Below, piece by piece: positions 14,676-16,039 of a stretch of 33,702 bases of DNA. The stretch is from Candidatus Nanopelagicales bacterium (GTDB lineage: Bacteria > Actinomycetota > Actinomycetes > S36-B12), in contig JBIHZU010000003.1 of NCBI GenBank assembly GCA_044240285.1, positions 1 to 33,702 on the forward strand, in the 5' to 3' direction. A program made the position numbers and the translations under genes. The notes beneath the pieces are model-generated. The model did no database searches and had not been told where the DNA came from. It worked only from the letters and a program-made list of their open reading frames with translations. The stretch's first letter is position 1; each line of letters opens with the position of its first letter.

Positions 14676-15602
14676 TCATCCGACCACAGCACGCACAAGG
14701 CGGGTGACCGCAGAGGAGAGGTCTCCTACCCAATGGTCCTGGGCCGCATGGGGGTCCCAACCAGGACCACCTACCAGCACGAGCGGGGGTCGGCGGCTGT
14801 CCGGAATGGCCTCGAGGAGATCAAGGTGGCCGGTCTCGTCGGTTTGTGACCACACGAATACAGCAGCAGGTCCAGTGCGCTTGACTGCAGATGTCAAAGA
14901 ATGAACCGGAAGACGAGAGCCAAGTTGAACTGACACCACGCTTCGCTCAGCGAGCGCCGCGGCAAGTGCCCATAGCGGAAGGTTGTGCGGCTCATCCGGA
15001 GCGGCAGCAAGCAGAACAACCCGCTCCGTCCTTTCACCACGAACAAGTTCGTGTGCGTACGTTCCAAAGGCTTGCTTGACCGACTCGGAGACGAGATGCT
15101 CCGTCTCGATGGTGCCGCCGGTGTCGTTCCAGCGCTGGCCCAAACCAGTGAGTACAGGTACCAAAATCTCATCCCATGTCCACACTGCGCCGCGCTCGCG
15201 CAAGGACTCGGTGATCAAGTCGACGCAGGCTCGACCGTCGAGGCACATTGCGGCACGTGCCAGACCTCGCGCGCTAGGAGTCGCACCTGCTACCGAGATG
15301 ACGGCTCCGCCACCGGGTCGGGAGGGCACTTCGGGGTGTGCGATCGGCGCCACTACAGCAAGCCCGGCCCCGGAAAGAACTGCCCGAGCCGCGTCAGCGG
15401 TAGAGACACCCGCTCGTATCAAAGCTTGCATACGTTCGAGAGCCTGGAGGTCATCTGGGGAGTAGCGCCGATGGGCACCGGCGCTGTGCTCCGAGGGCCC
15501 CACGCCATAACGACGATCCCACGTGCGCAAGGTGGCAGGGGATACTCCGAGTCGGCGAGCCACTGCCGCAACCGTGATCGCGGGCGCCTGAGCCGATTCC
15601 AT
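14676..15602 (-). CDS. MerR-family regulator with a cobalamin-binding domain (CarH/LitR-like)
   Basis: MerR HTH ([24 protein letters not shown]...HRRYS), W-x9-EH ([12 protein letters not shown]), and E-x-H-x2-P-x42-S-x-T-x23-GG. Start re-called at ATG 15602 (308 aa). Confidence 0.88.
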
Positions 15603-15626
15603 GCGTTGATTGTGGGGCAGTTGGGC

Positions 15627-15658
15627 CATCCTCGCATTCTGAGGGCGCGGCGAGGATG
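15627..15658. repeat. 9-bp inverted repeat in the regulator/whiD divergent region
   Basis: CATCCTCGC (15627-15635), 14 nt, GCGAGGATG (15650-15658). Confidence 0.5.
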
Positions 15659-15682
15659 TGGCACAAATCGCACAGAAACCAC

Positions 15683-15711
15683 TTGACTCGGTTTTGACAC
15701 GGTTCTAAAGT
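15683..15711 (+). promoter_or_regulatory. whiD/whiB3 promoter overlapped by tandem 11-bp direct repeats
   Basis: TTGACT (15683-15688), 17 nt, TAAAGT (15706-15711). Repeats TTGACTCGGTT (15683-15693) and TTGACACGGTT (15694-15704). Confidence 0.7.
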
Positions 15712-15736
15712 GTTCCTACAACCTGAGGAGGTCGCA

Positions 15737-16039
15737 ATGGCTGATGTGTCCCGGCTACCTGGACCGAACGCCGACATCTGGAATTGGCAGCTCGAAGGCG
15801 CCTGCCGCGGCGAGGACCCTGGTTTGTTCTTCCACCCCGAAGGTGAGCGTGGACCGCTGCGCATGGAGCGAGAAGAGGCCGCCAAGGCCATCTGTGCTCG
15901 CTGCCCAGTAGTCACCCGATGCGCCACCCATGCGGTGGCTGTTCGCGAGCCCTACGGCGTGTGGGGCGGACTCACCGAGGAAGACCGCGAGGCAATGTAC
16001 CGCCGCAGCCTCGCACCGGTGAGCGAGCTCATAGCCTGA
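15737..16039 (+). CDS. whiD: WhiB-family [4Fe-4S] transcriptional regulator, WhiD/WhiB3 type
   Basis: MADVSRLPGPNADIWNWQLEGACRG...FFHPEGERG...AKAICARCPVVTRC...EPYGVWGGLTEEDR; four Cys plus GVWGG; GAGGAGG RBS before ATG 15737; typical position next to groEL1. Confidence 0.93.
   Translation: MADVSRLPGPNADIWNWQLEGACRGEDPGLFFHPEGERGPLRMEREEAAKAICARCPVVTRCATHAVAVREPYGVWGGLTEEDREAMYRRSLAPVSELIA

Follow-up and report, generated by a model that had tools for sequence, protein, structure and literature searches.

A LitR/CarH-type regulator divergent from whiB3 in Actinomycetes: a probable light- and adenosylcobalamin-dependent repressor of a WhiB-like gene

Introduction

Which gene is controlled by a protein that has the build of a cobalamin photoreceptor and has no carotenoid gene at its side? 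This question is raised by a locus in a 33,702-nucleotide stretch of Candidatus Nanopelagicales bacterium DNA (GenBank assembly GCA_044240285.1, contig JBIHZU010000003.1, our contig C140; the whole stretch is called the window here), where the gene of a LitR/CarH-type regulator stands divergently from a WhiB-like (Wbl) gene of the whiB3/whiD class. The genome comprises 1.84 Mb in 291 contigs and its completeness is estimated at about 81.6%. WhiB3 is the [4Fe-4S] partner of sigma-A, and the WhiB3/WhiD proteins are sensors of redox state, nitric oxide (NO) and pH that steer lipid metabolism, stress responses and sporulation; to our knowledge the transcriptional control of their genes is poorly known beyond a few model species.

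A preliminary description of this locus, made from the sequence alone, had assigned the regulator to the CarH/LitR photoreceptors, which use adenosylcobalamin (AdoCbl), and had named whiD as its nearest plausible target. We have computed the architecture and fold of the protein, the conservation of its cofactor residues, the synteny of the gene pair, how closely a promoter element accompanies the regulator, and how often that element occurs genome-wide. As a protein, the regulator is an additional member of the already known LitR/CarH family; its conserved and apparently dedicated coupling to whiB3 represents a new form of the LitR circuit. We conclude that the gene encodes a class I LitR/CarH-type regulator which is probably an AdoCbl- and light-dependent repressor dedicated to whiB3.

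Results

The regulator is a three-domain protein of the LitR/CarH type

The 317-residue protein consists of a MerR-type winged helix-turn-helix (HTH), a four-helix-bundle domain and a Rossmann-like domain (Table 1). All three Pfam families for which a search had been recommended, MerR_1, B12-binding_2 (32.6 bits with a cut-off of 23, residues 121-189) and B12-binding, were matched, the last one below its threshold. Among solved structures the single sequence found Thermus thermophilus CarH (TtCarH) as the best match (E 1.7e-14), and a profile of 12 family members matched the full-length T. thermophilus CarH at E 3.6e-32; the HTH aligned with the DNA-binding domain of CarH. The AlphaFold2 model had a mean predicted local distance difference test value (pLDDT) of 83.6 and a predicted template modelling (TM) score of 0.64, with low confidence only in residues 1-14 and in the linker 89-107, and the helices of its four-helix bundle span residues 118-196. 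With this model the best Foldseek match was again full-length TtCarH (5c8d, E 3.6e-15), and the comparison with the cobalamin-binding domain of CarH (8c31) gave a target-normalised TM score of 0.80 and a root-mean-square deviation of 3.6 over 199 columns. The assignment to the CarH/LitR type was thus borne out by domain architecture, by sequence and by fold, as well as by the cofactor residues described below.

Translation start at ATG 15629 is weakly favoured, because an orthologue from the same genus (91% identical) aligns to the regulator from residue 2. The divergent arrangement of the pair was described correctly before; the gap of 134 bp given for it presumes the start at ATG 15602, and from ATG 15629 it amounts to 107 bp.

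The cofactor residues are among the best conserved positions

According to the translation of the open reading frame (ORF), W167-x9-E177-H178 corresponds to nucleotides 15096-15131 and E213-P-H215 to 14985-14993, while S261-Q-T263 and G287-G288 are present as well, so that the W-x9-EH, ExH, S-x-T and GG motifs reported from the sequence were all found at the positions assigned to them. For the Rossmann-fold domain of class I proteins the expected pattern is E/DxHxxG, SxL and GG. In CarH-type proteins the residues of W-x9-EH cap the photolabile adenosyl group. In both profile and pairwise alignments W167, E177 and H178 are equivalent to W131, E141 and H142 of TtCarH, and H215 to its H177 (the motifs read GEAW, EEH and ERH in TtCarH); His215 would be the lower axial ligand of cobalamin. 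It was recognized that residues 37-48 of the HTH (15486-15521) also fit the bare W-x9-EH pattern by chance, and a second, false match is present in many family members; the pattern alone is unspecific, and it is the copy in the B12-binding_2 domain that counts.

Conservation was counted over 107 unique whiB-linked proteins. W167 is kept in 104 of them, E177 in 99, H178 and H215 in 106 each, G237 and P241 in 105 each, whereas G288, G290 and W291 are present in all. E213 is kept in 95, and ten more have Asp in its place. The HTH residues T33, L34, R35, T36, W37, R40, Y41, G51, H53, R54 and Y56 are invariant or nearly so. Within residues 120-300, where the median frequency of the most common residue is 0.55, only 17 positions reach 95% or more, and W167, H178, H215, G237 and P241 are five of these.

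The preliminary description had seen a possible obstacle in the Pro that replaces the Gly of ExHxxG. This worry falls away because Pro is the family norm: it occurs in 91/107 of the whiB-linked proteins and is shared with Streptomyces LitR, being present in 11 of 12 crt-linked or Streptomyces-type homologues (the remaining one, L010, has Ala). The signature given for light-responsive B12 photoreceptors in PMC11796333 consists of GxxW, EH, GxxH and GxxxP. Three of these are strictly present in the regulator; in GxxH the His is present and the Gly is replaced by Asp212, and that Gly is found in 18 of the 107 proteins. One further homologue with an adjacent whiB (L160, G437) contains a single in-frame TGA inside the match and may be a pseudogene or reflect a sequencing error.

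The partner gene belongs to the WhiB3/WhiD class

The divergent gene encodes a Wbl protein with a Whib domain, four cysteines in the arrangement C-x29-C-x2-C-x5-C and the sequence EPYGVWGG; EPY before GVWGG marks the WhiB3/WhiD/WhcB class (PMC6282962). Its best match among solved structures is WhiB3 (131 bits, versus 65 for WhiB1), and these features together place it in that class. GTG 15710 could serve as an alternative start; ATG 15737, with GAGGAGG upstream, is likelier.

The same genome has a second WhiB3-like paralogue (L175, C230:3976-4185, minus strand), which is 66% identical, contains EPYGVWGG and has no element upstream of the kind described below. Its orthologues are the best Wbl matches in those relatives that have neither the regulator nor whiB3 proper.

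The divergent pair is conserved over several orders

A synteny survey across Actinomycetota, which had been recommended, found the divergent pair kept at three levels. In a sample of 80 loci on contigs from one genome per species, whiB is divergent and upstream in 79, with gaps of 95-457 nt; the 80th lies at a contig end with only 174 nt upstream. The protein is present in 35 of 41 genomes that share the genus, family or order and include the window's own; of the 29 order-level loci taken from the other genomes, 27 are whiB-adjacent, one stops at a contig end and in one whiB3 is 1.7 kb distant on the same contig. Across the phylum, 61 of the 401 genomes sampled gave a match, a number that counts the window's own genome and also G120 (flagged as unpublished and used nowhere else). 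In this sample 4 of 29 loci were whiB-adjacent, and they came from three further families of the class. Altogether 110 other loci have the divergent regulator-whiB arrangement. The named carriers are Lentzea, Saccharothrix, Actinosynnema, Pseudonocardia, Goodfellowiella, Umezawaea, Actinophytocola and Motilibacter; the pair is also present in metagenome-assembled genomes (MAGs) labelled Nanopelagicales, Frankiales and Mycobacteriales, some of whose labels look wrong and were not relied on. Neither the regulator nor whiB3 proper was found in four genomes of the same order (G413, G416, G427 and G401). Homologues from other classes have DUF2090, dodecin and rhodanese neighbours and offered no useful contrast.

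The interval between the regulator and guaB varies from 37 nt in the window (counted to guaB ATG 14638) to about 4 kb in Lentzea, while the divergent pair persists. In Lentzea sp. E54 (L096, 7893-10252) the interval holds genes for a BldM-like response regulator (Response_reg and GerE), an extracytoplasmic function (ECF) sigma factor and an RsdA-type anti-sigma factor, so that the Lentzea order is whiB, litR-like, bldM-like, sigma, rsdA, guaB.

An operator-like element lies on the whiB promoter and follows the regulator

Only one promoter-like site, TTGACT-17 nt-TAAAGT, was found in the region 15450-16150, and it is directed towards whiB (Table 1). Across the family this promoter contains the element cTTGAmCAAs-nTn-TGnnnCGnTT, followed by the -10 box; the element covers the -35 box and the 17-nt spacer. 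Near-invariant positions are located also within the spacer (T14 G15, C19 G20, T22 T23), and since a sigma-A promoter alone does not require these, the conservation exceeds what sigma-A needs. The second 11-mer of the element is TGnnnCGnTT in 79/92 instances and the first is mostly TGnnnAAnnT (78/92).

A position weight matrix (PWM) built on 84 loci finds the element in 82 of them and misses L014 and L028, the most divergent ones. All of the 27 independent whiB-adjacent loci carry it, with best core scores of 10.5-37.2. The core score in the window, 22.6, is the best in its own genome, where the runner-up has 16.0. Scores did not exceed 1.0 upstream of 15 whiB3/whiD orthologues that have no adjacent regulator, nor upstream of 9 paralogues. 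Where the regulator is displaced by 1.7 kb (G412) the element is retained with a score of 32.9. Two genomes (G409 and G429, 97% and 100% complete) have no regulator homologue at 1e-10, with whiB3 still beside groEL, and there the element is missing upstream of whiB3 (best scores -15.9 and -2.2). As the element is absent where the regulator is absent, it goes with the regulator. The naming of whiD as nearest plausible target is supported by this tracking and by the synteny, and the earlier reservation that the adjacency could be incidental can be dropped, given 110 other loci with the divergent pair and an element that follows it. Control of whiB3 by light or B12 is suggested by the presence of such a conserved element at its promoter.

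A 22-nt pattern of the element, with at most one mismatch, occurs exactly once in four of five named genomes (6.1-9.0 Mb), always in the regulator-whiB intergenic region. In Motilibacter, the fifth, the copy has diverged further, and reversing the pattern as a control yielded zero matches. The window's own genome has three occurrences of the strict tandem pattern, and the other two lie inside ORFs. A search for further regulon members found no site above 6 bits on the contigs with crt or photolyase genes. Since the element is unique in the genome, the regulator looks dedicated to one intergenic region.

Three other readings of the intergenic region were discarded. An exact repeat TTGAC-N6-TTGAC is present in only 1 of 84 loci; the conserved form is the degenerate element. 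Classical MerR activators (MerR, CueR, SoxR) use a palindromic operator within an over-long spacer of 19-20 bp. Here a palindromic MerR-type operator was rejected, as only CAA/TTG is symmetric and the spacer has 17 nt, a length that fits occlusion and makes MerR-type activation by spacer remodelling unnecessary. A riboswitch or other RNA was dropped after an Rfam scan of the intergenic region returned no family, the sub-threshold matches lying at the terminator only.

The regulator's own promoter could not be identified in the window. Five loci (L034, L036, L046, L064, L073) have the element on the regulator strand too, and this pattern suggests autoregulation there. A 9-nt perfect inverted repeat that includes the regulator ATG (Table 1) may pair the start codon in the mRNA; alternatively, the mRNA may lack a leader, and CAGAAT (15636-15641, minus strand) would then serve as its -10 box. 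The intergenic region of the same-genus relative is 99% identical to that of the window and is uninformative. Metatranscriptome contigs from two runs match 239 nt of the regulator (1 mismatch) and 269 nt of whiB (5 mismatches); they give no strand, start or level, may stem from DNA carry-over, and are not taken as evidence of expression.

In G429 (L177, about 1290-1330) a 13-nt repeat in three tandem copies (CTTGCGTCACCGT) and a divergent TPR-like gene stand upstream of whiB3, a layout that points to another mode of control at this position. Another locus (L028 in G230, 1498-2442) has a whiB- and groEL-adjacent MerR protein without B12-binding domains and without the element. This protein may be a counterpart of the likewise B12-less class V LitR of Micrococcales (PMC9758184).

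The Streptomyces LitR proteins are close relatives

Homologues on named Streptomyces replicons are 38-43% identical to the regulator and are divergent from an ECF sigma gene in the two regions examined; genes for lycopene cyclase and phytoene synthase adjoin in one of them (H2), and the other (H5) has the divergent sigma gene and no crt genes. Upstream of the Streptomyces-type litR the sequence CAAC-n-yGCrTCGtTT-s-TGCGTCGTAT-nGT was found, in which the same half-site is repeated at an interval of 11 nt and runs into the -10 box. A relaxed tandem pattern, (T/C)GnnnCGnTT-n-TGnnnCGnAT, precedes litR in 6 of 9 Streptomyces-type loci, and the remaining three narrowly fail to match it.

A quick maximum-likelihood tree of 109 proteins placed all class-level members in one clade with 100% support, and the crt-linked proteins (the Streptomyces type and L005, which stands behind crtI-like and NUDIX/idi-like genes) in one sub-clade beside the whiB-linked proteins of Pseudonocardiaceae. 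Nesting of Streptomyces LitR inside the whiB-linked proteins, as seen in this tree, is not established: monophyly of the whiB-linked proteins is compatible with the approximately unbiased (AU) test (p 0.47), and the crt-linked LitRs are accordingly either nested in them or sister to them.

Table 1. Features of the regulator-whiB3 locus and its surroundings, in window coordinates
Feature	Position	Strand	Basis
LitR/CarH-type regulator gene, 317 aa (alternative start ATG 15602)	14676..15629	minus	ORF, Pfam, CarH profile match, AlphaFold2/Foldseek
MerR-type winged HTH (residues 19-83)	15381..15575	minus	Pfam MerR_1, 58.9 bits (cut-off 21.6)
Four-helix-bundle B12-binding_2 domain with G164-x-x-W167 and E177-H178	15063..15269	minus	Pfam
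Rossmann-like B12-binding domain with E213-x-H215-x-L-P218, G237-x-x-x-P241, S261-x-T263, G287-G288-P-G-W291	14748..15017	minus	sub-threshold Pfam, conservation, model
Divergent intergenic region	15630..15736	none	ORF list and sequence
whiB promoter with operator-like element: -35 TTGACT (15683-15688), 17-nt spacer, -10 TAAAGT (15706-15711)	15682..15712	plus	promoter scan and PWM
Two near-identical tandem 11-nt direct repeats, TTGACTCGGTT / TTGACACGGTT, each with TGnnnCGnTT	15683..15704	plus	read from sequence
9-nt perfect inverted repeat, CATCCTCGC/GCGAGGATG, including regulator ATG 15629	15627-15635 and 15650-15658	none	sequence analysis
whiB3/whiD-class Wbl gene, 100 aa	15737..16039	plus	ATG 15737, Shine-Dalgarno sequence GAGGAGG at 15725-15731, Pfam Whib 7.6e-26
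Terminator-like hairpin between convergent whiB and groEL	16058..16075	plus	sequence analysis
guaB3-like gene	11998-13116	minus	ORF and Pfam
guaB	13139-14698	minus	ORF and Pfam
groEL	16097-17737	minus	ORF and Pfam
groES	17800-18150	minus	ORF and Pfam

Discussion

How could such a regulator act on whiB3? The AdoCbl-bound protein would oligomerise in the dark and occupy the two tandem 11-bp sites at 15683-15704, where the oligomer would cover the -35 box and the spacer of the sigma-A-type whiB3 promoter and block it. Light would photolyse the Co-C bond, the oligomer would loosen and whiB3 would be transcribed; WhiB3 could then work as the output factor together with sigma-A, in a role parallel to that of LitS for LitR in Streptomyces. 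Binding to the element, binding of AdoCbl, release by light and the sign of the regulation are what we infer from the sequence comparisons. That the regulator controls the whiB3 promoter we consider highly probable, and that it binds a corrinoid we hold with good confidence. Light as the physiological signal is favoured more cautiously, and the whole chain, an AdoCbl- and light-dependent class I LitR/CarH-type repressor dedicated to whiB3, is the account towards which we lean, if only slightly. The genome encodes a PduO-type adenosyltransferase, which counts in favour of this account as a source of the cofactor, and the regulator of the window is its sole MerR/B12 protein.

The nearest known system is the class I LitR of Streptomyces with litS, which serves light-induced carotenogenesis. 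LitR is about 40% identical over 84% of the protein, falls into the same clade with 100% support and has in common with the window protein the ExHxLP and GPGW variants. In both cases a divergent, bidirectional pair links the regulator with a transcription factor that works with RNA polymerase, and tandem 11-nt repeats of the TGnnnCGnTT type stand on the promoter. In the dark, the bidirectional promoters of litR and litS are repressed by LitR-AdoB12 (PMC11519972). The systems differ in the partner, which is the sigma-A-binding Fe-S protein WhiB3 in the window and an ECF sigma factor in Streptomyces, in the adjoining crt genes, which the window does not have, in the spacing W-x9-EH versus W-x10-EH of the Streptomyces-type sequences, and in the position of the repeats, on the -35 box and spacer in the window and on the spacer and -10 box in Streptomyces.

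TtCarH (PDB 5C8A-5C8F) has the three-part architecture, the fold and the aligned W, EH and lower-ligand His of the window protein at 25-26% identity, with His132 replaced by Asn and ExHxxG by ExHxLP in the latter. The CarH operator consists of three or four tandem 11-bp direct repeats nAnnTnnACAn which overlap sigma-A promoters (PMC8156234), and the tandem 11-mers predicted as a site on the sigma-A-type promoter of the window resemble this layout. The TtCarH operator has three repeats and the target crtB, while there are two clear repeats in the window and the putative target is a regulator gene. CtMerR (PDB 8JBS/8JBT) matches the regulator at E 1.1e-8 and likewise has no His132 equivalent. 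It is known by the GxxW/EH/GxxH/GxxxP signature, from which the window protein departs by an Asp at the Gly position of GxxH. CtMerR shows light-responsive structural changes, and anaerobic illumination changed it without monomerisation (PMC11796333). CarA and the B12-less LitR classes II-V share with the window protein a MerR-type DNA-binding domain of the same family; compared with them, the window protein keeps all tested cofactor-contact residues except two glycines. The division of LitR into classes I-V reportedly goes back to Sumi et al. 2018.

Several points weigh against the account given above, for which the support is computational throughout. The Pfam B12-binding match (residues 205-294) reaches 20.4 bits, below the cut-off of 32.1; a Streptomyces-type LitR homologue likewise stays under it with 28.6 bits. 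The NCBIfam equivalog model of CarH, NF052513, gives 82.3 bits with a cut-off of 400, so that the regulator counts as related to the Thermus/Myxococcus protein but not as its equivalog. Asp stands in place of the Gly of GxxH, and W167 is followed by Asn168 where TtCarH has His132, the residue used in the bis-His form of its light state (PMC11796333). The E of EH is missing from seven or eight members and the W from three, with the element retained, so that light sensing may not extend to every member. Myxococcus xanthus CarA retains the B12 motif yet needs no B12 (PMC8156234), and the biochemistry of Streptomyces coelicolor LitR was described as unknown, with the possibility that its light form activates (PMC11519972). 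As for the DNA, the half-sites fit nAnnTnnACAn only partly, with the TG and T positions on part of its complement; the near-identity of the two 11-mers is confined to this genus and a few other loci; the PWM scoring is partly circular, as the matrix was trained on some of the loci that it scored; and G409 and G429 are consistent with the tracking and no clean tests of it, because their whole upstream regions are rearranged or replaced.

Some of these points could be read in other ways. The protein might sense the availability of corrinoid, binding the whiB3 promoter only when (adenosyl)cobalamin is at hand, with light having no physiological role, for instance in carriers from soil or sediment. 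Such a sensor would agree with the B12 requirement of CarH-type repression (PMC8156234), with the many carriers that are soil genera (Lentzea, Saccharothrix, Pseudonocardia), with the missing His132 equivalent and with the members that are without the E of EH; it is less easily reconciled with the near-invariance of the adenosyl-capping W, E and H, with the many carriers that are MAGs of freshwater plankton, and with the related LitR by which soil Streptomyces achieve light induction (PMC11519972). We regard it as unlikely, although it is the alternative to be taken most seriously. A shade less probable is a cofactor-independent repressor resembling CarA or a B12-less LitR, whose B12-like domain only oligomerises and which answers to another signal or is constitutive. 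CarA itself, the whiB-adjacent L028 without any B12 domains and the sub-threshold B12-binding score could be taken in this sense, but the lower-ligand His, GxxxP, W and EH are among the best conserved positions of the C-terminal two-thirds, which is hard to explain without a cofactor.

Two further explanations concern the DNA and not the cofactor. The element might be read by another factor, either WhiB3 itself with sigma-A or some other conserved regulator, while the MerR-type protein acts elsewhere: the element contains an ordinary -35 box, the matrix was in part trained on what it found, and the binding of this regulator to the element is a prediction. Nevertheless the element is absent from whiB3 promoters without the regulator even though WhiB3 and sigma-A are kept there, the litR promoters of Streptomyces, with no whiB beside them, have its half-site too, and no second site for the regulator was seen in the genome, and another reader is therefore improbable. 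Finally, the adjacency could be inherited gene order without regulatory meaning, as the groEL-whiB3...guaB neighbourhood is conserved as a block. This we consider very improbable: the stretch from the regulator to guaB has gained or lost genes (37 nt to about 4 kb) while the pair and the element persist, and the four same-order genomes named above have neither the regulator nor whiB3 proper.

If the repression of whiB3 by an AdoCbl-dependent LitR is true, light through AdoCbl photolysis would switch on a [4Fe-4S] partner of sigma-A across much of the Actinomycetes, including abundant freshwater plankton of the Nanopelagicales type and soil Pseudonocardiaceae, and one small module would join a light signal with a redox and NO signal. 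Light, or corrinoid supply, would become an input to the Wbl network conserved over several orders, and non-phototrophic freshwater Actinobacteria would gain a concrete route from light to transcription. It would also hint at the origin of the LitR-LitS switch of Streptomyces, which is used in Streptomyces optogenetics. The order whiD-bldM-sigma-guaB, which we take to be that of Streptomyces, can be set beside the Lentzea order, and the latter is compatible with a departure of litR from this neighbourhood in Streptomyces. WhiB3/WhiD could be the original and still widespread output of actinobacterial LitR, with the Streptomyces LitR-LitS-crt system as a later rewiring after litR had left the groEL-whiB3-bldM-sigD-guaB neighbourhood; we offer this, together with a light switch that spans much of the Actinomycetes, tentatively, as a scenario in which we have somewhat more doubt than trust.

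The preliminary description knew of no report of a light- or B12-to-WhiB3 cascade, and our full-text searches, which left subscription journals mostly uncovered, found no link of a LitR/CarH-type regulator to whiB3 or whiD either. The nearest report is computational and concerns actinobacterial operons of photoglobin and B12-binding sensors with WhiB among the outputs (PMC8717448). These operons have in common with the window a putative photosensor of the B12 type and a link to the WhiB family; they contain a photoglobin domain and form multi-gene signalling operons, whereas the window has no photoglobin and a one-component MerR-type regulator facing whiB3. The main texts of light RNA sequencing studies of freshwater Actinobacteria (PMC8591293, PMC11577799) and of a heliorhodopsin study (PMC8612252) contain no relevant mention of WhiB, MerR, LitR or CarH.

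Additional features of the window and of related loci

A scan of ORFs with Pfam revealed no carotenoid or photoprotection genes adjoining the regulator in the window. The statement that the window has no crt or photolyase genes is correct within these limits; it does not extend to the genome, which has a crtB-like phytoene synthase gene and a photolyase gene on other contigs.

The start listed for guaB, TTG 14698, overlaps the 3' end of the regulator gene; the in-frame ATG 14638 with GAGGAG upstream is likelier. In that case 37 nt separate the co-directional regulator and guaB, and read-through into guaB and guaB3 is possible in so small a genome.

Farther from the locus, a molybdopterin dehydrogenase cluster (two XdhC-like proteins, a MoCoBD large subunit, and 2Fe-2S and FAD subunits) at 505-6579 adjoins guaA (6479-8032). 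At 20526-21680, between tsaD and tsaE, a TsaB-like domain (TsaD family) is fused to a RimI-like GNAT acetyltransferase. An open frame of at least 1847 aa at 28108-33651 (minus strand) runs past the end of the window; it has no Pfam match above threshold, only weak Big_6 and fn3 matches at E 0.0056. In another class, a gene with a dodecin domain (flavin storage) stands beside a LitR-type homologue (L026 in G316, 2475-3149).

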